A DNA stretch of 64,000 nt from an uncultured Prevotellaceae bacterium (GCA_900316355.1 ONCQ01000003.1:6113-70112); one strand, 5' to 3'. Shown: positions 5,044 through 50,995, counted from the first letter of the stretch. The notes: generated by a model from the letters alone, not told the origin. Made by a program: numbers and translations.

Positions 5044-6270
5044 TTACGCTACTTGTGATGATAATGCTGTGATGCGGGGAACGGCATAGTAGAAGCGGCC
5101 GTCGGCATCGCGAGCCATCTGGTAGCCGCGTGCGCTCAGGGCGATGCCCAGCTGCACCTTGGTGGAGTGCGTGGGCTCGATGAAGGGGTACTCCTTCGTG
5201 ACTATCTTCACCAGCGTGCTCATGGGCAGCGGTTCGCAGGGCTCGTCGGCAGCAGGCTGACGGAAGCAGACATCCACCATCTGCTCCAGGTCGTGGGTGG
5301 ACTCGTAGGGCGCATTGGCCAGCTGCAGGCTACGCGTCTCAGCCTCCGTGAGCCAGTAGCGCTCGCTGTTGCGCAGCTCGCTGAGCACCTGCGCATAGAG
5401 CTGTTCGTAGTTGACGGGCGTGAGGTTGTCGATGACGCTGCCGGCGGCAATCTCGATGCACAGGAAACGACGCGAGCCGGTGGGGTCGTGCAGGGGATGC
5501 AGGTTGTTGGTGGTTGCCACGAACGACGCGTAGCGACGGCGGTCGGCCTGCACACGTCCGTAGATGGGGCGCCCATTCACGCGAACCTTCGACAGCAACT
5601 GCTTCAGCTCTGCCTGCTGGCAGCGCCGCACCTGATCCAGCTCGTCGATGTTCACCAACAGATTGTTTGTCAGCGCCATCTCCTTGTCAAACTTGTTGCC
5701 GAGGTTCACATGGTCGAGGAAATACTCGCGCAGGTGCTCGGGCAGCAACAGCCGGCAGAAGGTGCTCTTGCCGCAGCCCTGTGCGCCGATGAGCGTGGGC
5801 ACCACCTCGTTGCCGTGCAGCGCATCCATCTGCATCCAATGCGCCACCATCGAGCGCAGCCAGATGGAGAGCCAGTAGCGCTGCTCGCTGCGGATGCCGG
5901 GCAGGCGGTCGAAGAGTGCGCCTGCGTGGTTCTTGCCATCCCACGCCGGCAGTGCCATCAGCCACTCGCGGACAGGATCGTAGTCAGGCGTCTCGCGCGA
6001 ATAGATAATGGTGGTCAGCTTCTTGCCCACGCCCTGTGCCTCCGGCATCGCCTCTTCGGTTGCGAGCGCGAGACTGTTCATGTCCTCGGCAGTCAGCGCC
6101 CGCCAGACATCTTCGCTCGCATCGCTCGCCAGACTGTCACCCTGCTCGGACGTGCAGCTGTCGCCGCCCTCATTCAGTTCACGATACTCGATTTTGCCGC
6201 TCAACAGGTTGCGGCGGAAAGCATATCCCTCCTTGAGGAACTGCTTGATGTCAGAATTTGTGATTCTCAT
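5044..6270 (-). CDS. Virulence-associated protein E (VirE) / primase C-terminal-like P-loop protein
   Basis: Walker A GAQGCGKST and overall VirE-family architecture. In Bacteroidota this family is usually tied to mobile elements. Confidence 0.75.
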   Translation of the reverse strand: MRITNSDIKQFLKEGYAFRRNLLSGKIEYRELNEGGDSCTSEQGDSLASDASEDVWRALTAEDMNSLALATEEAMPEAQGVGKKLTTIIYSRETPDYDPVREWLMALPAWDGKNHAGALFDRLPGIRSEQRYWLSIWLRSMVAHWMQMDALHGNEVVPTLIGAQGCGKSTFCRLLLPEHLREYFLDHVNLGNKFDKEMALTNNLLVNIDELDQVRRCQQAELKQLLSKVRVNGRPIYGRVQADRRRYASFVATTNNLHPLHDPTGSRRFLCIEIAAGSVIDNLTPVNYEQLYAQVLSELRNSERYWLTEAETRSLQLANAPYESTHDLEQMVDVCFRQPAADEPCEPLPMSTLVKIVTKEYPFIEPTHSTKVQLGIALSARGYQMARDADGRFYYAVPRITALSSQVA

Positions 6271-8851: not shown

Positions 8852-9412
8852 TCACCAGCTGAGTGTGCGGGTGCCGTCGGGATTGGCGGTGATGTGCACG
8901 CGGAGCGTGTCATCGGGCAGCAGGTCCTCGATGAGTTCGGGCCATTCGATGAGGCACAGGTGGCCGCTGTAGAGGTAGTCCTCGAAGCCCATGTCATAGG
9001 CCTCCTCGATGCGCTTGATGCGATAGAAATCGAAGTGATAAATAGATGAATGCTCTTTGCGTTCGTCATTGACCTTCGGTCGAGCCTGCTCACGCTCGGG
9101 AAAGTTCAAGCAAGCTTGACTCTCCTCTCGCTTAATCGCAGCCTTCGTCATTCGTAACTCATCATTCGTCATTCGTAACTTGTCATTCACAGCGTATTCG
9201 TTGACGATGGCGAAGGTGGGGGAGGTGACCGGTTCGGTGACCCCCAGTTCGCGGCAAAGGGCTGCGATGAAGGTGGTCTTGCCGGCACCCATGGTGCCGT
9301 AGAAGGCAATGATGCGGCGGTCGCCTAAATTGGCGCGGAACTCACGGGCGGCTGCATCCAGCGCGTCTTCCGTGAAGGTGATGGAGGGTTTATTTTCTGT
9401 GGGTGAGGTCAT
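8852..9412 (-). CDS. tsaE: tRNA threonylcarbamoyladenosine biosynthesis protein TsaE, carrying an in-frame ~110-bp repeat-element insertion
   Basis: P-loop GTMGAGKTTF and the HFDFYR motif. About 43 extra residues lie between VNEY and IYHFDFYR, encoded by the repeat at 9056-9190. Confidence 0.8.
   Translation of the reverse strand: MTSPTENKPSITFTEDALDAAAREFRANLGDRRIIAFYGTMGAGKTTFIAALCRELGVTEPVTSPTFAIVNEYAVNDKLRMTNDELRMTKAAIKREESQACLNFPEREQARPKVNDERKEHSSIYHFDFYRIKRIEEAYDMGFEDYLYSGHLCLIEWPELIEDLLPDDTLRVHITANPDGTRTLSW
9056..9190. repeat. Repeat element inside tsaE coding sequence: a 76-bp core plus a CATTCGTAAC-type tandem array
   Basis: The core at 9071-9146 is 76/76 identical to 31113-31188. 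It is flanked by TTCGTCATT direct repeats. Confidence 0.85.
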
Positions 9413-9508: not shown

Positions 9509-11143
9509 TCAACCTCTCTTCCTCGGCGTGAGTTCCACCAGGGGAATCAGCATTTCCTCCATGGAGATGCCGCCGTGCTGGAAGGTGTCGCGGTAGTAGG
9601 AGACGTAGTAGTTGTAGTTGTTGGGGTAGGCGAAGAAGCTGTCTCCGCGGGCGAAGATGTAGCGCGTGGATAGGTTGGGGGAGGGCAGCAGCGCGCGCTG
9701 GGGATTAGTGATCTCGAAGACTTCCTTGGGGTTGTAGTCGAGGTTCTTGCCGAGCTTGTAGCGCAGGTTGGTGTTGGTGTTCTTGTCGCCCTTGACACGC
9801 ACGGGGGACTGACAGCGGATACTGCCGTGGTCGGTGGTCAGGATGATGCGGTAGTCGGAGGTGGCGAGGGCGCGGAAGAGGTCTGCGACGGCGCTGTGGC
9901 GGAACCAGCTGAGGGTGATGCTGCGGTAGGCGGCCTCGTTGCTGGCCAGCTCGCGCACCATGCGGCTCTCTGTGCGAGCGTGGCTGAGCATGTCGATGAA
10001 GTTGAGGACGCAGACATTGACATCGTATTTCTCCATCTGCGGCAACTTCTGCACGAGGCGCTCGGCGGCAGCAGAGTCGTTGACCTTGTTGTAGGTGAAG
10101 GTGTGTTGGCGGCGGTAGCGCTTGAAGAGGGTCTGTATGAGAGGCGCCTCGTTGAGGTTCTTGCCCTCCTCGCTGTCCTCATCGACCCAAAGGTCAGGGA
10201 ACATCTCGGCGATGATGTTAGGCATGAGGCCCGAGAAGATGGCGTTGCGCGCATACTGCGTGGCAGTGGGCAGGATAGAGCAGTAGAGAGCCTCGTCGAT
10301 ATGGAAGAGGTCGGCAATCTCGTTCATGAGGATGCGCCACTGGTCGTAGCGGAAGTTGTCGATGACGATGAGGAACACCTTCTCGCCGCTGTCCAGGAGG
10401 GGGAAGACGCGGCGCTTGAAGATGTCGGGGCTCATGATGGGCGGGCGCCCGGGCATCTCGGCATCGTTGATCCAGTCGAGGTAGTTACGCTCGATGAAGC
10501 GGGAGAACTGGTGGTTGGCCTCCTGCTTCTGCATGGCCAGCATCTCCTTCATGCCGCTGTCGGTCTCGGAGAGCTGCAGCTCCCAGGCCACGAGGCGGCG
10601 ATAGACCTCCATCCAGTCCTCGATGCTGCGGGCCTCGTCGATGAGCATGCCCATCTTGCCGAAGTCCTGCTGGTAGGCGGTCTGTGTCTGTTCGGTGACG
10701 ATTTCGCGCTGATGGATGTTCTTCTTCAGCGAGAGCAGTATCTGCGTGGGGTTGACGGGTTTGATGAGGTAGTCGGCAATCTTGCTGCCTATGGCCTGAT
10801 CCATGATGTTCTCCTCCTCGCTCTTGGTGACCATCACCACGGGTGTGGTGGGCGTCACCTCCTTGATGCGCTGCAGTGTCTCGAGTCCGCTGAGGCCGGG
10901 CATGTTCTCATCGAGGAGGATGAGGTCGTAGGTCTTCTCGCGGCAGCGGTCGATGGCGTCGAAGCCATTGGTGACGGTATCGACGGCATAGCCCTTCTTT
11001 TCCAGAAAGAGGATATGAGCCTTCAGCAGCTCTATCTCATCGTCGATCCAAAGTAAAGAAGCTATGGCAGACCCGGCAGACCCACCCCCGACCCCTCCCG
11101 TGAGGGAGGGGAGAGGCTGGCGCGATGTAGTTTTATTGGACAT
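9509..11143 (-). CDS. porX: Type IX secretion response regulator PorX (CheY receiver plus PglZ/alkaline-phosphatase-like domain)
   Basis: LWIDDEIELLKAHILFLEKKGY receiver N-terminus with a PglZ-like C-terminal domain. The first ~28 codons, including the ATG, are encoded by the palindromic repeat element. Confidence 0.75.
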   Translation of the reverse strand: MSNKTTSRQPLPSLTGGVGGGSAGSAIASLLWIDDEIELLKAHILFLEKKGYAVDTVTNGFDAIDRCREKTYDLILLDENMPGLSGLETLQRIKEVTPTTPVVMVTKSEEENIMDQAIGSKIADYLIKPVNPTQILLSLKKNIHQREIVTEQTQTAYQQDFGKMGMLIDEARSIEDWMEVYRRLVAWELQLSETDSGMKEMLAMQKQEANHQFSRFIERNYLDWINDAEMPGRPPIMSPDIFKRRVFPLLDSGEKVFLIVIDNFRYDQWRILMNEIADLFHIDEALYCSILPTATQYARNAIFSGLMPNIIAEMFPDLWVDEDSEEGKNLNEAPLIQTLFKRYRRQHTFTYNKVNDSAAAERLVQKLPQMEKYDVNVCVLNFIDMLSHARTESRMVRELASNEAAYRSITLSWFRHSAVADLFRALATSDYRIILTTDHGSIRCQSPVRVKGDKNTNTNLRYKLGKNLDYNPKEVFEITNPQRALLPSPNLSTRYIFARGDSFFAYPNNYNYYVSYYRDTFQHGGISMEEMLIPLVELTPRKRG

Positions 11144-11280
11144 AAGATTCTTCGTTATCTCGTTATTCCGTTATTTCGTTATCTCGTTATTTCGTTATTC
11201 CGTTATTTCGACTCCCCCTCTCCGCAGGCTCTCCCCTCCCTCACGGGAGGGGTTGGGGGTGGGTCTAATACATCCAATCT
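11064..11280. repeat. Large palindromic element: ~46-bp inverted arms (GACCCACCCCCGACCCCTCCCGTGAGGGAGGGGAG...) around a CGTTATTTCG tandem array
   Basis: The left arm (11075-11125) and right arm (11221-11268) are reverse complements. The tandem array spans 11148-11215. Confidence 0.85.
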
Positions 11281-14259: not shown

Positions 14260-14637
14260 TTATTCGGCACCCTCAAAATTCATTAAAAGCATAGCTTCGT
14301 CGCGCAATGCCTCCGGCAGTTCTATGCCCCGCAGTTGCAGGCTGCGAAGCCAGTCGCCTACCTCGCGGCGTAGGGTGGTGTAGAGCACATTGCGGAACTC
14401 CTCTGTCTCCTCCTCGCTGTAGTCGTCGCCGCGCCGCCCGCGGAAGCGGTCCAGCTCCTCATCGTCGAAGTATTCGATGGGCTCCTCTGCCGCCTTCATC
14501 AGCAGCTCTTTCTCGCAGACGGCATGCTGGCCGCAGCAGATGAAGGAAGACCCTTCCTCAGAAGACCCACCCCCCTGCCCCTCCCTTGTAGGGAGGGGAG
14601 TAGTCACTTTTGCTTGATCTGTATTACTCCTTTTCAT
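14260..14637 (-). CDS. Small acidic hypothetical protein; the true start is probably internal (MKAAEEP...)
   Basis: The ORF lies between aroA and the TPR gene on the same strand. Its N-terminal ~35 codons are encoded by a palindromic repeat. Confidence 0.3.
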   Translation of the reverse strand: MKRSNTDQAKVTTPLPTREGQGGGSSEEGSSFICCGQHAVCEKELLMKAAEEPIEYFDDEELDRFRGRRGDDYSEEETEEFRNVLYTTLRREVGDWLRSLQLRGIELPEALRDEAMLLMNFEGAE

Positions 14638-14690
14638 TTCTTGCAGGTATTTACTCCCCGCCCTACAAGGGAGGGGCAGGGAGGAGGGTC
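14564..14690. repeat. Palindromic element with CCCCTCCCTTGTAGGGAGGGG arms and a ~43-bp spacer
   Basis: Arms at 14564-14607 and 14651-14690 are reverse complements. Confidence 0.8.
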
Positions 14691-15997
14691 TTTTTCACCC
14701 CCGCCTTCTCCAACTCTTCCCAGAACGTGGGGTAGGACTTGGTGACTACTTCGGGGTTGTTGATGTCGATGCTTCCCAACACGAGGGCGGCGGGCGCAAA
14801 GGCCATCGCCATGCGGTGGTCCTCATAGGTGTCGATGGCGGTGCCGGGCAGCGGTTGCAGATAGGGAATCTCGCCGTAGGGCTGTGCCTCTGGTCCGGCC
14901 CATTGCATCACGCTGTCGCCTTCCACCTCCACGCGCACGCCCAGCTTTGCCAGCTCTGTCTGCAGCGCCGCGATGCGGTCGGTCTCCTTGATGCGGAGGC
15001 TTTGGAGTCCGGTGAAGCGGAACGCGATGCCCTTCATGGCGCAGGTCACCACCAGCGTCTGCGCCAAGTCGGGTGTCTTCGTGAAGTCCCACTCGAATCG
15101 TTTCGGCAGGCGGCCCCGTCGCATGAGCATCGCCCGCGGTTCATCATCGTCCGTCATCGGAGGCATACAGAACGAGGCCACCGACAGCTTCTTAAACATC
15201 TCCTGCACGGCGCTGTCACCCTGCAGGCTCTCACTGAAGAGTCCCTTGAGCTGGAAGACATTGTTGCGCTCGTCGCTGAGCAGGAGCAGTTCAAACCAAT
15301 AGGACGCGGCGCTCCAGTCCGCCTCTACCAGATAAGGCGTTGGCCTATAGGGTTGTGGCTCCACGGCGATGGTGCTCGGTCCCCTCCATTGTGCCTTGGC
15401 ACCATATTCTTTCATCATGGACAGCGTCATGTCAATGTAAGGACGGCTCACGATCTCGCCTTTCAGGCGGAGCGTCAGCCCCTCCTGTAGCTTCGGTGCG
15501 ATCATCAGCAGGGCTGAGATATACTGCGAGCTGACATCTCCCGCCAGCTCCACCTGGCCACCTCGCAGAACGGTGCCTGTGATGCGCAGGGGCGGGAAGC
15601 CCTCCTCGCCGACGTATTCTATCTCTGCCCCCAGGCTCCGCAACGCCTCCACCAGCACGCCGATGGGCCGGTGTTGCATACGTTCCGTTCCTGTGATGGT
15701 ATGCGTGCCGGGCGTCACCGCCAGCAACGCCGTTAGGAAGCGCATCGCCGTGCCGGCAGCTTTGACGTTTACGACAGGTGGCAACATACAGTCACTCCCC
15801 TCGCGCCGCTCCATTTCCAGCAGGAACAGCGCTTCCATCATCACGGTGGTGTCGTCGCAGTCCGACACGTTCCTCAGCAGACCCGGAATCCCGCCGCTCA
15901 GCGCGTTCAGCACCAGTGCTCGGTTGCTGATGCTCTTGCTGGCGGGCAGGCGCAAATCGCCGGTCAGATGTGTAGGTTTAGAGATTCGATAACTCAT
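14663..15997 (-). CDS. aroA: 3-phosphoshikimate 1-carboxyvinyltransferase (EPSP synthase)
   Basis: Starts MSYRISKPTHLTGDLRLPASKSISNRALVL. The longer ORF N-terminus (TRFELATPR...) is read-through across the tRNA-Pro gene and was rejected. Confidence 0.85.
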   Translation of the reverse strand: MSYRISKPTHLTGDLRLPASKSISNRALVLNALSGGIPGLLRNVSDCDDTTVMMEALFLLEMERREGSDCMLPPVVNVKAAGTAMRFLTALLAVTPGTHTITGTERMQHRPIGVLVEALRSLGAEIEYVGEEGFPPLRITGTVLRGGQVELAGDVSSQYISALLMIAPKLQEGLTLRLKGEIVSRPYIDMTLSMMKEYGAKAQWRGPSTIAVEPQPYRPTPYLVEADWSAASYWFELLLLSDERNNVFQLKGLFSESLQGDSAVQEMFKKLSVASFCMPPMTDDDEPRAMLMRRGRLPKRFEWDFTKTPDLAQTLVVTCAMKGIAFRFTGLQSLRIKETDRIAALQTELAKLGVRVEVEGDSVMQWAGPEAQPYGEIPYLQPLPGTAIDTYEDHRMAMAFAPAALVLGSIDINNPEVVTKSYPTFWEELEKAGVKKTLLPAPPL

Positions 15998-16263: not shown

Positions 16264-17043
16264 ATGTCCACTGTCATCTATCCTTCGCCTATCTTCGGGC
16301 CTGTACACAGCCGCCGCCTGGGCGTCTCACTCGGCATCAACCTGCTGCCTGCCGACGGCAAGGTCTGTTCGTTTGACTGTATCTATTGTGAATGCGGCCT
16401 CAACCGGGAGCGGCGCGCGAAGGAGAAGATGCCCACGCGCGAGGCGGTGCGCACGGCCTTGGAGGCGCGCCTGCAGCAGATGGCTGCCGAGGGACCTACG
16501 CCCGATGTGCTGACCTTTGCCGGCAATGGCGAGCCCACGTTGCATCCCGACTTCCCTGCTATCATTGAGGACACGCGCGTGCTGCGCGACCGTTACTGCC
16601 CCAAGGCGCGCATCAGTGTGCTGAGCAATGCCACGCAGATCCTGCGCCCCGATGTGTTCGCGGCGCTCTGTCGGGTGGATAACAACATCCTGAAATTAGA
16701 CACGGTGGACGCTGATTTCATTCGGCAGGTGGACTGTCCCACAGGGCATTATGCGGTGGAGGCGATTGTGGAAGGGCTCGCGCGCTTCCGCGGACATGCC
16801 ATCATCCAGACGATGTTCCTCACGGGAACCGATGCCCAAGGGAACACCGTGGACAACACGTCGGCGCACTATGTGACGCCCTGGCTGGAGGCGTTGCGCA
16901 TGATTGGTCCCGAGGCGGTGATGATCTACACCATAGACCGCGAGACGCCCGTCAGCACCCTGCGCAAAGCCGCGCCCGAAGTGTTGGATGCAATTGCAGA
17001 GCAGGTGCGCGCATTGGGCATCCGCTGCTCCGTGGCCTACTAA
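16264..17043 (+). CDS. Radical SAM protein (COG0731-like Fe-S oxidoreductase)
   Basis: CSFDCIYCEC cluster motif after a FGPVHSRRLGVSLGINLLP N-terminus. Confidence 0.7.
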   Translation: MSTVIYPSPIFGPVHSRRLGVSLGINLLPADGKVCSFDCIYCECGLNRERRAKEKMPTREAVRTALEARLQQMAAEGPTPDVLTFAGNGEPTLHPDFPAIIEDTRVLRDRYCPKARISVLSNATQILRPDVFAALCRVDNNILKLDTVDADFIRQVDCPTGHYAVEAIVEGLARFRGHAIIQTMFLTGTDAQGNTVDNTSAHYVTPWLEALRMIGPEAVMIYTIDRETPVSTLRKAAPEVLDAIAEQVRALGIRCSVAY

Positions 17044-17098
17044 CTCCTTGAACTTTTGAACTCCTTGAACTTTTGAACTCCTTGAACTCCTCAAACTC

Positions 17099-23531: not shown

Positions 23532-23589
23532 GAATTGAACATGGAGAGTTAAACTTTTGAACTTCTTAAACTTTTGAACTCTTAAACCC

Positions 23590-25389
23590 TTGAACTCCTG
23601 TTCTGCTTTTGATTGGAAAGGGCGCTATGAGGCGTTGCACGACTACTTCCCCAGCACGTACTACACACCCGTGATAGGCATCACGGGTAACTTCGGTGAG
23701 AAGGGTTGCGAGCTGGCAGAGGGCTACTATGAGAGCATCCTGCGGGCGGGGGCCACCCCCGTGGTGCTGCCGCCCACAGAAGATGCCGATGCGCTGTGCA
23801 CGATGCTCGACAGTATCGATGCCCTGGTGCTCTCGGGCGGCGGCGATATCAACCCGCTCTTCGCCGGCGAGGAACCTGTGCCACAGCTCCATAGCATCAA
23901 TCCCAAGCGCGACCTGTGCGAGCTGCTGCTCGTGCGCCTGGCCTACGACCGCCAGCTGCCCATGCTCGGCATCTGCCGCGGCATACAGGTGTTGGCCACC
24001 GCCCTCGACGGCAGCGTGTGGCAGGACATCGCCTCGCAGTTCAATCCCCCCGCGCTCATCAAGCACAGTCAGGATCTGGAGCGCAGCCGTGCCTCGCACA
24101 CCGTGGCGGTGGCCGAAGGGTCGCTGCTACAGCACATTATGGGTGTTGATACACTGTCTGTCAACAGCTTCCATCACCAGGCTGTGCGCGAGGCTGGCCC
24201 CCACCTGCGCGTCTGCGCCACAGCACCCGACGGCGTCATCGAAGCCGTGGAATCCACCGAGCATAAGAGCATCATTGGCGTGCAGTGGCACCCCGAATGC
24301 TTCTGTCTGGGTGGCGATGCGCGCATGATGCCGCTCTTCCGATGGCTGGCCGACGAGGCGGCCAACTACCGCGAGGCGCGCCGCATACACAGCCGCATCA
24401 TCACCCTCGACAGCCATTGCGACACGCCGATGTTCTTCGATCAGGACATCCACTTCGACCAGCGCGACCCCAAGATACTCGTGGACTTGCATAAGATGCG
24501 CGAGGGAGGTTTGGATGCCAGCACCATGGTGGCCTACATCCCCCAGGGACCGCTCACTGATGAAGGGCGCGCCGCTGCCACCGCCTATGCCGACAGCCAG
24601 CTCTCCCGCGTGGAGAAGATGGTCGAGGCGAATGCGGCAGCCGTGGGCATGGCCTATGATGTCAAGGACCTCCATCGCCTGAAGGCTGAGGGGCGCAAGG
24701 CCATCATGCTCGGCATCGAGAACGGCTATGCCATCGGTCGCGACATCCATCTGTTGGAGCGTTTCCAGAAGAAGCACGGCATCGTCTATATGACGCTCTG
24801 CCACAACGGCAACAACGATATCTGCGGTTCCGCACGTCCGCGTGAGGGTGAGCAGCTGATGGGCGTCACAGACTTCGGTGCCGACGTCATTCGTGAGATG
24901 AACCGCCTCGGCATCCTCGTGGACCTCTCCCACGGCAGCGAGCGCAGCTTCTACGATGCCCTGGACATCAGCACCAAGCCCATCGTGTGCTCCCACTCCT
25001 CATGCCGCGCCCTCTGCGACCATCCCCGCAACCTCACCGATGACCAGCTGCGCGCCCTCGCCGCCAAAGGCGGTGTGGCACAGGTCACCTTCTACAGCGG
25101 TTTCCTGCGCACCGACGGGCAGGCCAGTATCCTGGATGCAGTGGCCCATCTCAACCACATGGTGCAGGTGATGGGCATCGAGCATGTGGGCATCGGCACT
25201 GACTTCGACGGCGACGGCGGTGTCCCCGGCCTCGCCTCTGCCGCAGAACTCATCAACTTCACCCGCCGCCTGTTGCGCGAGCACTACAGCGAGGCGGACC
25301 TCCGCCTTATCTGGGGCGGCAACTGGATGCGCTGTGTAAGTGAAATGCCCCCGAGCCCCCTAAAGGGGAGCGTAGGGAGTGAAAAGTGA
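23590..25389 (+). CDS. Fusion protein: class-I glutamine amidotransferase-like (C26, PuuD-like) domain plus M19 membrane dipeptidase domain
   Basis: GATase catalytic region (GICRGIQVL...WHPE) followed by a renal-dipeptidase-family region (LCHNGNNDI...DLSHGSE...GIGTDFDGDGG). The last ~15 residues (EMPPSPLKGSVGSEK*) are encoded by a repeat element. Confidence 0.7.
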   Translation: MNSCSAFDWKGRYEALHDYFPSTYYTPVIGITGNFGEKGCELAEGYYESILRAGATPVVLPPTEDADALCTMLDSIDALVLSGGGDINPLFAGEEPVPQLHSINPKRDLCELLLVRLAYDRQLPMLGICRGIQVLATALDGSVWQDIASQFNPPALIKHSQDLERSRASHTVAVAEGSLLQHIMGVDTLSVNSFHHQAVREAGPHLRVCATAPDGVIEAVESTEHKSIIGVQWHPECFCLGGDARMMPLFRWLADEAANYREARRIHSRIITLDSHCDTPMFFDQDIHFDQRDPKILVDLHKMREGGLDASTMVAYIPQGPLTDEGRAAATAYADSQLSRVEKMVEANAAAVGMAYDVKDLHRLKAEGRKAIMLGIENGYAIGRDIHLLERFQKKHGIVYMTLCHNGNNDICGSARPREGEQLMGVTDFGADVIREMNRLGILVDLSHGSERSFYDALDISTKPIVCSHSSCRALCDHPRNLTDDQLRALAAKGGVAQVTFYSGFLRTDGQASILDAVAHLNHMVQVMGIEHVGIGTDFDGDGGVPGLASAAELINFTRRLLREHYSEADLRLIWGGNWMRCVSEMPPSPLKGSVGSEK

Positions 25390-25440
25390 ATAATGAAGAA
25401 TGAAAAATGAAAAGTGAAGAATGAAAAGTGAAAAATTAGA
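25342..25440. repeat. Palindromic core GAAATGCCCCCGAGCCCCCTAAAGGGGAGCGTAGGGAG plus a GAAAAGTGAA-type tandem array
   Basis: The core recurs at 41170, 45623 and 31230 (rc). The tandem array spans 25380-25440. Confidence 0.85.
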
Positions 25441-26564: not shown

Positions 26565-27077
26565 ATGCAAGATTATAATGATACTACGCGCCAGTCCTCC
26601 CCCTCTTCGACAGAGAAGGGGGTGGGGCGTGAGTCCATCGACTCCCTCCAAGACGAGATTATCGAGGAATTCAACGACTTCGATGACTGGATGGACAAAT
26701 ACCAGCTCCTCATCGACCTCGGCAACGACCAACAGCCGCTGCCCGAGAGCGCCAAGACGGAGCAGAACCTCATCGACGGCTGTCAGAGCCGCGTATGGCT
26801 CACAGCCACGCTGACGTCCGACGGCCTCGTGCACTTCGAGGCGGAGAGCGACGCCCTCATCGTGAAGGGCATCGTCACGCTCCTCATCCGCGTCCTCAGC
26901 GACCACACGCCGCAGGAGATTCTCGATGCCGACCTCTACTTCATCGAGCGCATCGGCCTCCGCGAACACCTCTCACCCACCCGCAGCAATGGCCTCCTCG
27001 CCATGCTCAAGCAGATGAAAATGTATGCCCTCGTTTACAACGAAGTGAAAAATGATGGAGTGAAAAGTGAAAAATGA
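26565..27077 (+). CDS. sufE: SufE-like cysteine desulfuration / Fe-S assembly protein
   Basis: SufE domain with the conserved Cys in QLIDGCQSRVWL. The C-terminal ~12 residues are encoded by a tandem-repeat array. Confidence 0.7.
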   Translation: MQDYNDTTRQSSPSSTEKGVGRESIDSLQDEIIEEFNDFDDWMDKYQLLIDLGNDQQPLPESAKTEQNLIDGCQSRVWLTATLTSDGLVHFEAESDALIVKGIVTLLIRVLSDHTPQEILDADLYFIERIGLREHLSPTRSNGLLAMLKQMKMYALVYNEVKNDGVKSEK

Positions 27078-27094
27078 AAAGTGAATAATGAAAG

Positions 27095-30362: not shown

Positions 30363-31010
30363 ATGTTCACAACTATCACCAACTGGTACGCCGGCTTGGA
30401 CGCCACGATGCAGATCTTCTGGGCGTGCGCCATCGCTGCCAGTGTTGTCTTCATCATTCAGAACGCCCTCATGCTCTTGGGCCTTGGTGGCATGGATGCC
30501 GATGTAGATGCCGATGTCAGCACCGACTTCGATGTCCATGCCGACGGCGATGCTGATGTCTCCACGGGTCACAGCGGCCACGAGGGCACACTCGGTTCTG
30601 CCGGCATCTTCTCGCTGTTCACGCTGCGCAACTTCATCAACTTCTTCCTCGGCTTCGGATGGGGCGGCATCAGCCTGGCGCCCGTCGTCCACAGCAAGGC
30701 CCTCCTTGTGTTGTTGAGCTTCGCGATTGGCGTCCTCTTCGTCGCCGTCTTCGCTGTGCTGATGCGCATGATGCTGAAGCTGGAGAAGAGCGGCAACTTC
30801 AAGATCCAGGACTGCGTCGGTCAGACCGCCAGCGTCTATCTCCGCATCCCCGGCAACCACAGCGGCGCCGGTAAGGTGCAGATTAGCATCCACGGCTCCG
30901 TGTATGAGCTCAACGCCTTCACCGACAGCCCCGAGCAACTCGCCACTGGCAGCCGCGTGAAAGTCATCGATATCATCGACAGCGGCAGCCTGCTCGTCAG
31001 CCCGCTCTAA
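30363..31010 (+). CDS. NfeD-like membrane protein (OB-fold C-terminus); flotillin partner
   Basis: TM N-terminus plus a C-terminal beta-rich OB domain, adjacent to an SPFH/flotillin gene. Confidence 0.65.
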   Translation: MFTTITNWYAGLDATMQIFWACAIAASVVFIIQNALMLLGLGGMDADVDADVSTDFDVHADGDADVSTGHSGHEGTLGSAGIFSLFTLRNFINFFLGFGWGGISLAPVVHSKALLVLLSFAIGVLFVAVFAVLMRMMLKLEKSGNFKIQDCVGQTASVYLRIPGNHSGAGKVQISIHGSVYELNAFTDSPEQLATGSRVKVIDIIDSGSLLVSPL

Positions 31011-31019
31011 GCCTTTGGC

Positions 31020-31300
31020 TGTTGGCTTTTGGCTTTTGGCTTTTGGCCTTTGGCACTCATCATTAGTAATTTTTATTTTTCACTTATCACTTATCACTCA
31101 TCACTCATCATTGACCTTCGGTCGAGCCTGCTCACGCTCGGGAAAGTTCAAGCAAGCTTGACTCTCCTCTCGCTTAATCGCAGCCTTCATCACTCGTCAT
31201 TCGTCATTCATCATTATTATTTTTCACTTTTCCCTCCCTACGCTCCCCTTTAGGGGGCTCGGGGGCATTTGAACTCTTGAACTCTTGAACTTTTTGAACT
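31020..31300. repeat. Composite repeat cluster: GGCTTTTGGC and CACTTATCA tandem arrays, the 76-bp core identical to the tsaE insert, an inverted PPSPLKG core, and a TTGAACTCTTGAAC array
   Basis: Direct reading. 31113-31188 equals 9071-9146. 31230-31270 is the reverse complement of the 25342 core. Confidence 0.85.
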
Positions 31301-31307
31301 ATACATT

Positions 31308-32693
31308 ATGGAACTCTACGTTATCGTTGTAGCGGCACTCGTTGCCTTCTTCCTTGTGGTAGCCATTTTCAACCGCTACCGTCGTTGTCCTTCGGACAAG
31401 ATTCTTGTTATCTACGGCACCAGCGCCGCCAAGGGCTCTGCCAAGTGCGTGCACGGTGGTGGTACCTTCGTGTGGCCCATCATTCAGGACTATGCCTACA
31501 TGAGCCTCACGCCCATCTCCATTGACGCCAACCTCACCAACGCCCTGTCGCGCCAGAACATCCGCGTCGATGTGCCCTGCCGCTTCACGGTGGGTATCTC
31601 CACGGAGCCCGACTACATGCAGGCTGCCGCCGAGCGTCTGCTGGGTCAGACCCCGCAGCAGATCCAGGAGCTCGCGCGCGACATCCTCTTCGGCCAGCTG
31701 CGTCTCGTCATCGCCACCATGTCCATCGAGGAGCTCAACTCCGACCGCGACAAGTTCTTGGAGGCCATCTCCACCAATGTCGAGGTAGAGCTCAAGAAGA
31801 TAGGTCTGCGCCTCATCAACGTCAACGTCACCGACATCAAGGACGAGAGCGGCTACATCGAAGCCCTCGGTCGCGAGGCTGCCGCCAAGGCCATCAACGA
31901 AGCCAAGGTGCGCGTCGCCGAACAGGATAAGATTGGTGAGATTGGTAAGGCCGAGGCCGTCCGTGAGACCCGCGTGCGCACCGCCGAGGCCAACGCCCAG
32001 GCCGTGAAGGGCGAGAACGAGGCCAAGGTCGAGATAGCCAACTCCGAGGCCTACCGCCGCGAGAAGGAAGCCGAGGCCCAGCGCAAGGCGCAAGCCGCCG
32101 AGAAGGTGCAGGCCGCCAAGGCCCTCGAGGAAGCCTACGCCGCCGAGCAGCTCGCCGAGACCGCCCGTGCCGAGCGTGAGCGCGCCACCGAGACCGCCAA
32201 TGTCATCGTGCAGCAGGAGATTGAGAAGCAGCGCCTCATCATCGCCGCCGAGGCCGAAGCCGAGCAGAAGCGCGCCATCGCCAAGGGTGAGGCCGACGCC
32301 GTCTTCGCCAAGATGGAAGCCGAGGCAAAGGGTCTCTTCGAGGTGCTGACGCGTCAGGCACAAGGTTACGACAAGATGGTGCAGGCCGCTGGTGGCGACG
32401 CCACCGCCGCCTACTCCCTCCTCCTCCTTGAGAAGCTCCCCGAGCTCGTCAAGACACAGGTCGAGGCCATCAAGGGCATCAACATCGACAAGGTCACCGT
32501 CTGGGACAGCGGCGCTGCCGGTGCCGACGGCAAAGGCTCCACGGCCGGTTTCGTCAGCGGTCTCATGAAGAGCATACCCCCTCTCAACGACCTCTTCGAG
32601 CAGGCCGGCCTCAGCATCCCCGAGTACCTCGCCAAGAAGAAAGCCGAGCGCGATGCCGATGCCGCTGCTGCCGCTGCCGACGTCGAGGAATGA
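31308..32693 (+). CDS. Flotillin-like SPFH/band-7 protein
   Basis: N-terminal TM, SPFH domain, and an extended EA-rich coiled coil (AEAEAQRKAQAAEKVQAAKALEEAYAAEQ). Confidence 0.85.
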   Translation: MELYVIVVAALVAFFLVVAIFNRYRRCPSDKILVIYGTSAAKGSAKCVHGGGTFVWPIIQDYAYMSLTPISIDANLTNALSRQNIRVDVPCRFTVGISTEPDYMQAAAERLLGQTPQQIQELARDILFGQLRLVIATMSIEELNSDRDKFLEAISTNVEVELKKIGLRLINVNVTDIKDESGYIEALGREAAAKAINEAKVRVAEQDKIGEIGKAEAVRETRVRTAEANAQAVKGENEAKVEIANSEAYRREKEAEAQRKAQAAEKVQAAKALEEAYAAEQLAETARAERERATETANVIVQQEIEKQRLIIAAEAEAEQKRAIAKGEADAVFAKMEAEAKGLFEVLTRQAQGYDKMVQAAGGDATAAYSLLLLEKLPELVKTQVEAIKGINIDKVTVWDSGAAGADGKGSTAGFVSGLMKSIPPLNDLFEQAGLSIPEYLAKKKAERDADAAAAAADVEE

Positions 32694-34077: not shown

Positions 34078-34133
34078 GGGAGCAGCGAGAGCAATCAAGC
34101 TCGCTTGAATTGCCGAGTCGCGACAAAAGTCAG
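34078..34133. repeat. Left arm of a ~56-70 bp inverted repeat flanking greA
   Basis: GGAGCAGCGAGAGCAATCAAGCTCGCTTGAATTGCCGAGTCGCGACAAAAGTCAGC is the reverse complement of 34756-34811 at about 51/56 positions. Confidence 0.8.
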
Positions 34134-34190
34134 CAAAGCTGAACTATTAAACTTTTGAACCCTTGAACTATTAAACTCAGCAAACATATA

Positions 34191-34661
34191 ATGGCTTACA
34201 TGACACAGAAGGGCTACGACAAGCTCGTAGCCGAGCTCCAGCATCTCGAAGCTGTTGAGCGCCCCAAGGCTTCTGCAGCCATCGCCGAAGCCCGCGACAA
34301 GGGCGACCTCAGCGAAAATGCAGAGTACGACGCTGCCAAGGAGGCACAAGGTCTGCTCGAAATGAAGATCACACAGCTCAAGGCCACCATCGCCGACGCC
34401 AAGATCATCGACACCAGCAAGCTCAACGCCGACACCGTGCAGATCCTCACCCGCGTAGAACTCAAGAACGTGAAGAACAACGCCAAGATGTCCTACACCA
34501 TCGTCAGCGAGACCGAGGCCAACCTGCGCGAAGGTAAGATCAGCGTCAAGACCCCCATCGCCCAAGGACTCCTTGGCCGCAAGGTCGGCGACATCGTCGA
34601 TATCCGCGTGCCCCAAGGCATGATCCAGCTCGAAATCCTCCACATCAGCTACGAGGAATGA
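34191..34661 (+). CDS. greA: Transcription elongation factor GreA
   Basis: MTQKGYDKLVAELQHLE...DLSENAEYDAAKE...GKISVKTPIAQGLLGRKVGD. Confidence 0.9.
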   Translation: MAYMTQKGYDKLVAELQHLEAVERPKASAAIAEARDKGDLSENAEYDAAKEAQGLLEMKITQLKATIADAKIIDTSKLNADTVQILTRVELKNVKNNAKMSYTIVSETEANLREGKISVKTPIAQGLLGRKVGDIVDIRVPQGMIQLEILHISYEE

Positions 34662-34755
34662 AGGCCAGAGGCCTGATTCATGGTTCAGGATTCAGGATTC
34701 ATGGTTCAGGATTCAGGATTCATGGTTTCAAGTTTCATGATTCGTCATTAACTTC

Positions 34756-34811
34756 GTTGACTTTTGTCACGACTCGGCAATTTAAGCAAGCTTAATTGCT
34801 CTCGCTGCTCC
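34756..34811. repeat. Right arm of the inverted repeat flanking greA
   Basis: See 34078-34133. A GGATTCAGGATTCATGG tandem array (34670-34745) lies just inside this arm. Confidence 0.8.
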
Positions 34812-34836
34812 AAAAGTTCGTAATTCCCCATTTCCC

Positions 34837-37804: not shown

Positions 37805-38521
37805 ATGAAGATAGCACTCATCGGCTACGGTAAAATGGGCCACATGATAGAGCAGATAGCTCTGGAGCGCGGACACGACATCGTGTGCCGCATCGACATC
37901 GATAACCCTCAGGACTTCGAGAGCGCGGCGTTCCGCAGCGCTGACGTGGCGATAGAGTTCACGGCTCCCACGGTGGCCTACGGCAACGTGCAGCGGGCGT
38001 TTGCGGCGGGCGTGAAGGTGGTGTCGGGCAGCACGGGGTGGTTTGCACAGCATGAGGCTGAGGTGCGCCGGCAGTGTGAGGCGGAGGGCAGGACGCTGTT
38101 CTGGGCCTCGAACTTCTCGGTCGGCGTGGCCATCTTCGGCGCCGTGAACCGCTACCTGGCACGCATCATGAATGGGTTCCCACAGTATGACGTGGAGATG
38201 GAGGAGACGCACCATGTGCATAAGCTGGACCACCCGAGCGGCACGGCGATCACGCTGGCAGAGGATATCGTCAGCGAACTGGACCGCAAGGAGGCGTGGG
38301 CCGAGGATACGACAGATCCGAAGCTGCTGCGCATCGACAACATCCGACGGGGTGAGGTGCCGGGGATTCACACGGTGCGCTACGACAGCGAGGCGGACCT
38401 GATAACAATCACGCATGATGCGCACTCGCGCAAGGGCTTCGCACTGGGGGCAGTGCTGGCGGCGGAATATACGGCCGAGCACAGCGGACTGCTGAGCATG
38501 GGGGATTTGTTTTCATTTTAA
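37805..38521 (+). CDS. dapB: 4-hydroxy-tetrahydrodipicolinate reductase
   Basis: MKIALIGYGKMG NAD-binding N-terminus and the EETHHVHKLDHPSGTA catalytic region. Confidence 0.85.
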   Translation: MKIALIGYGKMGHMIEQIALERGHDIVCRIDIDNPQDFESAAFRSADVAIEFTAPTVAYGNVQRAFAAGVKVVSGSTGWFAQHEAEVRRQCEAEGRTLFWASNFSVGVAIFGAVNRYLARIMNGFPQYDVEMEETHHVHKLDHPSGTAITLAEDIVSELDRKEAWAEDTTDPKLLRIDNIRRGEVPGIHTVRYDSEADLITITHDAHSRKGFALGAVLAAEYTAEHSGLLSMGDLFSF

Positions 38522-38670
38522 GGAGTTAAGAAGTTAAGGAGTTAAGAAGTTAAGGAGTTAAGGAGTTAAGACGAATGCTTTGCCACTGATAATACTTTGC
38601 ACGAGTAATGTCTTAACTTCTGCCCGAAGGGCGAGCGAAGCGATAACTCCTTGAACTCCTTAACTCCCCC
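38520..38670. repeat. GGAGTTAAG / TTGAACTCCTTAAC tandem arrays flanking a GCCCGAAGGGC hairpin
   Basis: Direct reading of the dapB-lepB intergenic region. Confidence 0.7.
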
Positions 38671-40149: not shown

Positions 40150-40235
40150 GGCCCCCTGTGGTCCCCCAAGGGGGACAATTGAGAATTGAAAATTGAAAAT
40201 TGAGAATTGGGGAATGGTAAGAATTGAGGAATCGT
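40150..40235. repeat. GGCCCCCTGTGGTCCCCCAAGGGGGAC palindrome plus a TTGAGAATTGAAAATTG tandem array
   Basis: Direct reading. It overlaps the ORF-track N-terminus of ung. Confidence 0.7.
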
Positions 40236-40873: not shown

Positions 40874-41565
40874 ACCAGATTCCTATCTTAGAAGTCGGCG
40901 GTGTGCTGATCAGCACTCAGATCCTCACCGAACGTTTCTGCTGCGACCTCGAAGCCTGCGGCGGCGCCTGCTGCGTGGAGGGCGATGCTGGCGCACCGGT
41001 CACGCTGGATGAAGTCGGCGAGATAGAGGCGGCGCTGGATGCGGCGTGGCCGTATATGTCGGCCACGGCACAGAGCGTGGTGGATAAACAGGGCGTTGCC
41101 TACACGGATGTGGAGGGCGACTTGGTCACGAGTATCGTGAACGGCAAAGATTGTGTGTTTACGTTCTACGAAATGCCCCCGAGCCCCCTAAAGGGGAGCG
41201 TAAATAGCCAAGAGCCAAGAGCTAAGAGCCAAGCGCCAAGTGCCAACAGCCAAGAGCCAGCAGCCAAAACCTGTTGTCTGTGTGCGCTGGAGGCGGCATG
41301 CAGGGCGGGGAAGAGTAGGTTCATGAAGCCCATCTCATGCGCGCTCTATCCCATCCGCGAGAAGCGTTTCGGCGGTGGCCTGGTGGGCCTCAACTATCAC
41401 CGCTGGGCCATTTGCGAGGGAGCGCGCAAGCGGGGACAGGAGCTGGACCTGCCGCTCTACCGTTTCCTGCGCGAGCCGCTGATACGGCGCTTCGGCGAGG
41501 CGTGGTACAAAGAGTTGTGTGAGGTGGCGGAGGAACTGAAAAGAGCGGAGCGAGACCGCCCATAA
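40867..41565 (+). CDS. Cysteine-rich conserved protein (DUF3109-like) carrying an in-frame repeat-element insertion
   Basis: CCDLEACGGACC...CCLCALE...CALYPIR cysteine pattern. Residues EMPPSPLKGSVNSQEPRAKSQAPSANSQEPAAKT are encoded by the palindromic core plus an AGCCAAGAGCC tandem array. Confidence 0.5.
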   Translation: MVNQIPILEVGGVLISTQILTERFCCDLEACGGACCVEGDAGAPVTLDEVGEIEAALDAAWPYMSATAQSVVDKQGVAYTDVEGDLVTSIVNGKDCVFTFYEMPPSPLKGSVNSQEPRAKSQAPSANSQEPAAKTCCLCALEAACRAGKSRFMKPISCALYPIREKRFGGGLVGLNYHRWAICEGARKRGQELDLPLYRFLREPLIRRFGEAWYKELCEVAEELKRAERDRP

Positions 41566-45606: not shown

Positions 45607-45622
45607 GAGAGTTTATTTTTTT

Positions 45623-45700
45623 AAGCCCCCGAGCCCCCTGAAGGGGAGCGTAGGGAGGGAAGAGGGAGGAGGGACAATGACGAATGCCAATGCCAAGAGC
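45623..45700. repeat. Copy of the GCCCCCGAGCCCCCTGAAGGGGAGCGTAGGGAGGG core plus a GGGAGG / GCCAATGCCAAG array
   Basis: Direct reading, upstream of purE. Confidence 0.8.
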
Positions 45701-49638: not shown

Positions 49639-49712
49639 CGCTCCAGGATGGGCTTGAACCAACGACCCCCTGATTAACAGTCAGGTGCTCTAACCAACTG
49701 AGCTACTGAAGC
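49639..49712 (-). tRNA. tRNA-Asn (anticodon GUU), copy 1
   Basis: Hand fold. Acceptor GCTTCAG/CTGGAGC, D-arm GCTC-AGTTGGTTA-GAGC, anticodon arm CCTGA-CTGTTAA-TCAGG, T-arm with one mismatch, discriminator G. Confidence 0.8.
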
Positions 49713-49764: not shown

Positions 49765-49838
49765 CGCTCCAGGATGGGCTTGAACCAACGACCCCCTGAT
49801 TAACAGTCAGGTGCTCTAACCAACTGAGCTACTGAAGC
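49765..49838 (-). tRNA. tRNA-Asn (anticodon GUU), copy 2, identical to copy 1
   Basis: Same 74-nt sequence repeated 126 bp upstream. Confidence 0.8.
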
Positions 49839-50924: not shown

Positions 50925-50995
50925 TATAACGGAATTACGGAACTACGGAATTACGGAATTACGGAACTAACGAAATTACGTTATTACGAAAAAGC
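50925..50995. repeat. GGAATTACGGAACTACG tandem array
   Basis: Direct reading, in the intergenic region downstream of the PfkB gene. Confidence 0.7.

Follow-up and report, generated by a model that had tools for sequence, protein, structure and literature searches.

The window analysed here, a stretch of 64,000 nucleotides (nt) from an uncultured Prevotellaceae bacterium (GCA_900316355.1 ONCQ01000003.1:6113-70112), carries on its minus strand a tsaE gene whose open reading frame (ORF) contains a 75-nt repeat element, named E here, next to an array of 7-nt repeats. Copies of E were scored with R1, a covariance model built from 92 distinct E copies, and the TsaE motifs were placed in an alignment with homologues. 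The locus has the following features.

8852-9412, minus strand: tsaE ORF of 186 aa, bearing the insert (ORF list and Pfam)
9272-9298, minus strand: Walker A motif, TsaE residues G39-T47
9194-9223, minus strand: SPTFAIVNEY, TsaE residues 64-73
9020-9040, minus strand: YHFDFYR, TsaE residues 125-131
9069-9143, plus strand (antisense to tsaE): E copy 1, TTGACC...GCAGCC, 75 nt (R1 104.2 bits, E=2.6e-26); read antisense it supplies TsaE residues K90-V114, KAAIKREESQACLNFPEREQARPKV
9144-9145, plus strand: the invariant TT after E copy 1
9062-9068, plus strand: heptamer TTCGTCA directly left of E copy 1, a 7/7 match to the first right-hand heptamer
9144-9188, plus strand: heptamer array right of E copy 1, TTCGTCA TTCGTAA CTCATCA TTCGTCA TTCGTAA CTTGTCA; with the rest of the array-derived stretch it supplies TsaE residues N76-T89, NDKLRMTNDELRMT

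The protein matches the TsaE family of Pfam (PF02367, E=8.8e-37; 126.4 bits, cut-off 26.6), and the insert divides this match into two stretches. Similarly, the solved TsaE 9zw5 (PDB; E=3.1e-38) aligns with residues 12-75 and 123-185 of the window protein, which leaves an extra segment of 47 residues (76-122) between Y73 and Y125 where 9zw5 has 5. An earlier note on this DNA had put the surplus at about 43 residues, a close estimate, although the peptide quoted there is itself 50 aa long. In an alignment of the window TsaE with 26 homologues (A1, 27 sequences) the columns of Walker A (GxxGxGKT), SPTF..NEY and YHxDxYR are invariant. The frame and the motifs downstream of the insert had been described as preserved, and indeed the ORF runs through all 186 codons with Walker A, SPTF..NEY and YHFDFYR intact. 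The predicted peptides across the insert junctions include AAIKREESQACLNFPER and MTNDELR. AlphaFold, run with the 27-sequence alignment, gave a predicted local distance difference test score (pLDDT) of 81-94 over most of the core and placed the insert between strands E70-75 and E123-128, as a protruding helix (77-99, pLDDT ~76-85) followed by a low-confidence stretch (100-122). The model suggests that the core fold of TsaE is confidently kept despite the insert.

Judged by its sequence, tsaE with the insert is not a pseudogene, as both the ORF and the motifs are intact. Gene calls yield an identical 186-aa TsaE from at least 23 contigs, the longest reaching hundreds of kilobases (kb), of several samples and assemblies, and a JGI metagenome contig carries tsaE with the insert and one synonymous change. 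The insert is presumably translated and TsaE function retained. Repeats and arrays can confuse short-read assemblers, and one homologue (P0002, 172 aa, on one ENA contig) has the insert yet lacks 14 core residues (FYRIKRIEEAYDMG), and could be a decayed allele or an assembly error; a mis-assembly that joined repeats, or a decayed tsaE, might therefore be suspected in the window too. For the window allele we consider this scarcely credible in view of the identical product on so many contigs, the near-identical metagenome copy, and the intact frame and motifs.

E in tsaE has an exact counterpart in the window. On the plus strand, positions 9069-9146 and 31111-31188 are identical at 78/78 nt, with 0 such matches expected (100 shuffles), and extension without gaps gives 111 nt of 94% identity (9063-9173 versus 31105-31215). 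A 76-bp core matching 31113-31188 at 76/76 positions had been reported before; the exact repeat is real, but the match is longer than stated and the unit is 75 nt. The tandem array said to follow the core was recovered with Tandem Repeats Finder (TRF) at 9144-9188, with period 7 (6.4 copies) and a super-period of 21 nt (2.1 copies). Over the whole window R1 returned just two E copies at 104 bits, together with two weak relatives. The second copy lies between genes.

31111-31185, plus strand: E copy 2, intergenic, part of the exact repeat (R1 104.2 bits)
31080-31110, plus strand: TCACTCA array, 4.4 units, left of E copy 2 (TRF)
31186-31215, plus strand: TTCATCA array, 4.3 units, right of E copy 2 (TRF)
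30363-31010 and 31308-32693: neighbours of E copy 2, a 215-aa membrane-protein gene and a flotillin/Band_7 gene, respectively (Pfam labels)

Both copies are present in some strains and absent from others. A search for TsaE homologues gave a length series of 187, 172, 154, 154, 153, 150, 144 ... aa, and P0003 and P0004 (154 aa) are near-identical to the window TsaE outside the loop. When the DNA of tsaE was aligned with three contigs encoding P0003 (L001, L003 and L004; alignment A2), a 96-column gap opened, the only one, and 5 of the 465 columns in common differed. The same holds for copy 2, whose loci were fetched via exact identity of the flanking 215-aa protein.

9071-9166: 96-bp block of E plus three heptamers, absent from close tsaE alleles; the repeats leave its boundaries uncertain by a few bases
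31110-31218: 109-bp block of E plus a TTCATCA-type array, absent from the same-species contigs L011, L013 and L014 (alignment A3)

The empty tsaE allele has four heptamers and the full allele seven heptamers plus E; the difference is 96 = 75 + 21, and both alleles are in frame. The more distant Prevotellaceae TsaE homologues in the protein alignment all lack the segment, so that the orthologue comparison proposed in the earlier note came out in its favour, both at P0003/P0004, which are without the clean 96-bp block, and in distant relatives. Five contigs have the empty allele, some of them from the sample series that also yielded the full allele. Two N-terminal haplotypes of TsaE, MTSPTENKP and MKSAEEYKP, were each found both with and without the insert; within-species recombination, or else repeated gain and loss, has therefore taken place. 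As read from these alleles, the insertion into tsaE is derived and recent.

To census the family we used the conserved left-end 20-mer of E (TTGACCTTCGGTCGAGCCTG), which matched at least 118 loci in GTDB species-representative genomes. Among the matches listed, nearly all carriers are rumen or gut Prevotella, Prevotellaceae or 'Bacteroidaceae' metagenome-assembled genomes, several genomes hold many E loci, and Prevotella sp. MA2016 and Xylanibacter brevis ATCC 19188 are cultured carriers. R1 found 134 matches in 735 kb of fetched loci. The count of copies that had been proposed as a check thus leads to a family far beyond two members, and neither of the two situations that the earlier note had set against its own reading was found: E is an interspersed family rather than a conserved loop lacking repeat copies, and the ORF is, by its sequence, no pseudogene. 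A scan with the central 26-mer of this species' E had at first suggested a two-copy oddity, with 0 matches in 185,579 GTDB species-representative genomes and a single match in JGI metagenomes, the tsaE locus itself; the conserved 20-mer overturned this by revealing the family. A protein search with a dimer of the E-encoded peptide returned 42 short hypothetical ORFs and nothing more, and is a poor census. In IMG/VR contigs the left-end 20-mer had 4 matches and the right-end 20-mer 5, with one contig in both sets; PHROG annotation of the neighbours on these contigs left 9/10 ORFs without a match, and the contigs are putatively viral. BLASTN of the region against phage and plasmid collections gave no match. 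Literature searches by topic, DNA string and encoded peptide found no description of E, and the family is large and apparently undescribed.

The anatomy of E is uniform. Measured from TTGACC to GCAGCC, 96 of 113 complete copies are 75 nt long and 9 are 72 nt, and 106/113 have a length divisible by three; in the family alignment (A4) the ends are conserved and the middle is variable. TT follows GCAGCC directly in 111-112 of 112 copies. As TT also opens E, each copy has the form TT, 73 nt and TT again, a net gain of 75 nt if one TT belongs to the target. Inspection of the A4 consensus shows that TTGACCTTCGG... and ...AATCGCAGCC, its two ends, do not complement each other in inverse orientation, and E has no terminal inverted repeats. 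In 65 copies there is no flanking repeat beyond TT, and in these TT is the sole flank position of about 2 bits; less marked preferences favour C at -2, either C or T at -1, and either C or G at +3. Further, E copies occur as head-to-tail dimers, joined GCAGCC/TTGACC, and as a four-unit tandem (L024, L116, L122 and L082). The tandem, at L082 3801-4104, has a 76-nt period and amounts to a minisatellite of E itself. Some E copies (L026, L027, L049, L071 and L096) have a copy of a related type nested within them, its position being fixed, and one copy of E (L042) has lost the hairpin described below through an internal deletion.

A central hairpin of about 10 bp is maintained across the family. 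Its ten pairs are paired in 95.1% of cells and include 208 double-change cells; 0/500 shuffles reached these values, and slid partner columns paired at 39-65%. The CAAGCTTG palindrome, picked out earlier within the core, turned out to be the tip of this covarying hairpin, and the CGAGC...GCTCG pair of E falls in a stretch that is invariant across the family. G-U pairs are rare in the hairpin (7 cells), and therefore what is constrained seems to be Watson-Crick pairing of DNA. Since the search pattern fixed its sequence, the left terminal hairpin (TTGACC-TTC-GGTCGA) does not vary in the sample, and diverged members keep it by double changes (for example, TTGATG...CATCGA in L140). Folding the tsaE copy on its own, on either strand, gave structures no better than shuffles (z = -0.14 and -0.89), so that the hairpin is visible by comparative analysis alone.

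This covariation, together with the many intergenic copies, could also mean that E is conserved for a primary role as a functional RNA or in regulation, for instance as a small RNA, processing site or terminator-like hairpin, and that its presence in tsaE is incidental. On the plus strand, A-C mismatches (about 27) exceed G-U pairs (7), as would fit wobble on the opposite strand, although these counts are non-independent and inflated by shared ancestry, and hence a hint at most. Against an RNA stand the single-copy folding result, the missing U-tract after the hairpin, and the occurrence of E in both orientations to local GC skew and in coding sequences read on either E strand. Rfam contains no match for E at the gathering threshold, where the window yields four tRNAs and nothing else, and a permissive scan of 30950-31350 gave chance-level C/D-box matches and nothing more. 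Taken together, we judge an RNA module improbable. Two of the tRNA genes are identical and lie 126 nt apart on the minus strand (49639-49712 and 49765-49838, Rfam 67.5 bits each).

E is read in many genes besides tsaE. Two of its six frames are usually open, (-,1) in 88/112 copies and (+,2) in 99/112. Frame (-,1), which the tsaE copy uses, reads a hydrophilic KAAIKREQS..AEREQARPKVK, and (+,2) a hydrophobic DLRSSLLTLG..LLSLNRSL. For 26 copies the longest ORF that spans E is in (-,1) and runs well past E on both sides. All nine other (-,1) ORFs tested (9/9) carry Pfam domains: SNF2 helicase, GH2, MutS, UmuC/IMS, peptidases M28 and S15, GT2, metallophosphoesterase and LysR. In GT2 and LysR, E falls inside the matched domain stretch, and one (+,2) copy lies within a match to the domain of CobD, a membrane protein. 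Orthologous genes of different species have some insertions in common (L029/L073/L132, L043/L063 and L058/L072/L104). The likeness to Rickettsia palindromic elements (RPEs) proposed in the earlier note is therefore borne out at the level of behaviour, by nine further same-frame copies in Pfam-domain ORFs.

Residues encoded by the hairpin arms vary non-conservatively across the family (e.g. R/C, Q/D/G), and the constraint thus lies on the nucleic acid and not on the peptide. This bears on whether the TsaE segment is instead a co-opted, lineage-specific functional loop held by selection, for which one could cite the moderately confident helix predicted for its first half (77-99) and the high frequency of the full allele, on at least 23 contigs versus 5 empty ones. 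Yet empty and full alleles turn up together in one sample series, these 25 codons also appear in unrelated proteins as well as between genes, and the arm residues change as described, which makes selection for such a loop very improbable.

E and short tandem arrays are associated. Of 110 E copies, 27 abut a tandem array of 6-9 nt, compared to 0.4-0.5% of random positions, and 38/109 have TT-starting 7-mers on both sides that match at 6-7 of 7 positions, where about 6 copies would be expected. For the tsaE copy, TTCGTCATT flanks had been put forward as a possible target-site duplication. TTCGTCA does flank E on both sides, but more likely as two neighbouring units of a pre-existing array. A 7-bp duplication would add 82 nt, which is not a multiple of three, and would thus shift the tsaE frame. 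As a general rule a 7-bp target-site duplication is unlikely, given this frame argument, the copies in non-repetitive sequence that lack it, and an unequal flank pair that recurs in the family. A pre-existing array is also what TsaE proteins elsewhere suggest: many from Prevotellaceae hold 7-aa repeats in the same loop, and in another Prevotellaceae species the tsaE of P0020 (L143 550-703) has a 22-unit TCAATCA array read in frame there, giving a 199-aa TsaE with HQSSVIN-type 7-aa repeats. The TsaE loop probably held heptamer arrays before E arrived. At one further locus (L052 ~5570-5644) an E copy lies between direct repeats of about 28 nt (TCGTCAAAAAAACT.CGTCCTTTCGTTC); being far longer than a heptamer, this repeat is explained neither by insertion at TT nor by an array.

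We therefore favour, with a probability of roughly 0.78, the interpretation that the tsaE segment came from the recent in-frame arrival of E, a small, mobile but non-autonomous element that is RPE-like in behaviour. Several observations weigh against it. The indels comprise E plus heptamers (96 and 109 bp) and not E alone, so that a simple 75-nt insertion presupposes an earlier, unsampled allele whose array was longer. The flank pair TTCGTCA-E-TTCATCA recurs at six copies of the window subfamily, and such an unequal pair implies that heptamers could travel with E, unlike in a plain model of insertion at TT. With the central 26-mer absent from the representative genomes, the copies known in this genome are the two in 64 kb. 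No mobilising gene or autonomous parent of E was found: in the limited set of fetched loci, an ORF never lies between a left end and a right end spaced by more than 130 nt. Finally, the orientation of E relative to local GC skew is 46:47, which lends no support to single-strand, replication-coupled transposition, 8-kb skew being a weak proxy for replication.

Some of the same observations suit an explanation without dedicated transposition, in which E was copied into tsaE, for example from 31111, by ectopic gene conversion or template switching via heptamer-array homology. The identity of the two window copies with their similar flanks, the heptamers included in the indels at both loci, the recurrence of the unequal flank pair at several copies in other genomes and the excess of copies with matching 7-mers on both sides are all in line with it. 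In contrast, the left homology at tsaE is just about 7-9 nt, and the 65 copies without flank repeats, including those in GT2, LysR, UmuC and SNF2 genes, keep exact 75-nt boundaries and TT. The head-to-tail dimers and the nesting at defined positions likewise better fit a precise enzyme. We regard conversion as the main rival, albeit an unlikely one.

Insertion of a mobile E into tsaE probably proceeded in three steps. First, the TsaE loop would already have borne a translated 7-nt array, the length of which can change in frame-preserving steps of 21 nt. Second, E entered this array at a TT unit boundary, adding exactly 75 nt or 25 codons. Third, the allele would have survived since its net length is a multiple of three, the frame (KAA..EREQARPKV) is open and hydrophilic, and the loop is tolerant and lies outside the motifs. 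A mobilising enzyme would act in trans and would be a recombinase or transposase, with folded or palindromic DNA as its recognition target and TT as the joining site; we propose this on the basis of the conserved termini, TT at both junctions, the GCAGCC/TTGACC dimers, the nesting and the Watson-Crick-only covariation. These features do not seem to fit a classical DDE transposase. By analogy, the junction anatomy may be likened to a 2-bp crossover via a circle or to hairpin-guided HUH transposition, and less so to DDE-type MITEs (miniature inverted-repeat transposable elements).

Among known systems, RPEs are the closest in behaviour. They are short palindromic interspersed repeats that occur between genes or in frame within many unrelated genes, including housekeeping genes, at positions tolerated by the fold; they are mostly old and fixed, and we know of no mobilising enzyme for them. 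RPEs were reportedly described by Ogata et al. in 2000. Like them, E is short, contains a palindrome, carries no gene, and is found both intergenically and in frame in diverse genes. It differs in belonging to Bacteroidota and presumably in having an unrelated sequence, so that the two are likened by behaviour only, in being shorter, a uniform 75 nt with a strict TT junction and a tie to 7-nt arrays, and in being present or absent between strains of one species, which indicates recent activity.

Repetitive extragenic palindromic (REP) sequences and REP doublets forming hairpins (REPINs), which are mobilised by REP-associated tyrosine transposases (RAYTs; Y1 transposases like those of IS200/IS605), share with E the hairpin with compensatory stem changes, the multi-copy, non-autonomous state and the lack of classical inverted ends. 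However, REPINs are inverted REP pairs and extragenic, whereas E is a single unit with two unlike hairpins, is often intragenic, and showed no strand bias. The absent inverted ends and TT rule of E would fit palindrome-associated transposable elements (PATEs) derived from IS200/IS605, although the two hairpins of E are unlike each other. Elements with a 2-bp crossover (IS607-type serine transposases, TnpX of Tn4451, and the IS110 family) resemble E in having the same dinucleotide at both junctions. E also resembles them in lacking inverted ends or a longer duplication, in its head-to-tail dimers, and in a left flank that is mildly similar to its own 3' end (C at -2 and -1 before TT). These elements are kilobase-sized and autonomous, and the likeness is one of junction anatomy only; no recombinase gene, circle or bridge RNA was found for E. 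MITEs such as Correia/NEMIS of Neisseria and BrickBuilt of Porphyromonas gingivalis are, as E, small, multi-copy, non-coding and near genes. BrickBuilt, in a Bacteroidota genome, has its tandem repeats inside the mobile element (PMC4596501), while the arrays associated with E lie outside the element. A census paper (10.1101/2024.01.18.576219) takes MITEs to have terminal inverted repeats and flanking target-site duplications; E is without the former and shows no consistent form of the latter. Where testable, REPINs, MITEs and IS200/IS605 derivatives thus each have one or more defining features that E does not show.

Other hairpin repeats and arrays surround the two E copies in the window.

34748-34817, plus strand: family B arm (...TTGACTTTTGTCACGACTCGG-hairpin-CTCTCGCTGCTCC...), a distant relative of E
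34078-34143, minus strand: family B partner arm
25342-25399, 31219-31270 (inverted), 41170-41227 and 45620-45677: small repeat GCCCCCGAGCCCCCTAAAGGGGAGCGTA, four copies in 64 kb
11078-11119 / 11225-11266 and 14562-14602 / 14652-14692: G/C-rich hairpin repeats CCCCTCCC-GTGA-GGGAGGGG, as inverted pairs
11151-11210, 17042-17098, 23549-23597, 25380-25436, 27043-27093 and 31014-31054: examples of tandem arrays
31269-31300, 38518-38570, 40177-40209, 41206-41267 and 50929-50988: further examples of tandem arrays

The two weak R1 matches mentioned above are the family B arms (22.3 and 20.9 bits), which flank greA (34191-34661) as an inverted pair (I1, 68 nt, 90% complementary). Their layout is TTGACTTTTGTC.CGACTCGG-hairpin-CTCTCGCTGCTCC, they adjoin tandem arrays (AACTATTA; GATTCAG, 9.7 units), and family B is the type nested inside the E copies listed above. 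Each copy of GCCCCCGAGCCCCCTAAAGGGGAGCGTA runs straight into a different heptamer array (TGAAAAG, GAACTCTT, AGCCAAG and GAGGGAA), a layout of hairpin module plus array as for E. One of the G/C-rich repeats coincides in part with the N-terminus annotated for the PglZ response regulator (…SRQPLPSLTGGVGGGS…), and closely similar peptides are inserted just upstream of Walker A in the TsaE of other species (RQPLPSLTGGVGGGS in P0017 and RQPHPSHTGGEGGGS in P0016), which suggests that these repeats may be a further element family readable in frame. Many intergenic stretches of the window are packed with tandem arrays of 7-9 nt with many different unit sequences, many of them containing TTCA or TTGA, and such short arrays far outnumber E copies in the window.

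More speculatively, E, family B, the other hairpin modules and the 7-9-nt arrays could all belong to one undescribed Prevotellaceae recombination system, which would carry out TT crossover of hairpin DNAs of ~75 nt and either write heptamer arrays or prefer them as targets. Its intermediate might be a tiny circle or folded DNA, and, as one heptamer shifts the frame by one, arrays might serve as frame-adjustable landing pads within essential genes. We think it doubtful that a single system accounts for all of these elements.

Prevotellaceae dominate the rumen and many human guts, and to our knowledge their small mobile DNA is almost uncharted. The E family represents a second, independent case of selfish DNA within protein-coding genes, outside Rickettsia, and a more tractable one, with strain-polymorphic copies, cultured carriers and a clean anatomy (75 nt, TT junction, covarying hairpin). 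In practice, E inflates and splits protein-family matches, as in TsaE, and gives rise to spurious calls of small ORFs; metagenome assemblies are probably broken by it as well, and it can serve as a strain-level marker. Loops of essential proteins in this lineage routinely hold tandem arrays that are presumably translated. Should the mobilising enzyme prove to be new, it could constitute a compact DNA-insertion system with a simple target rule.

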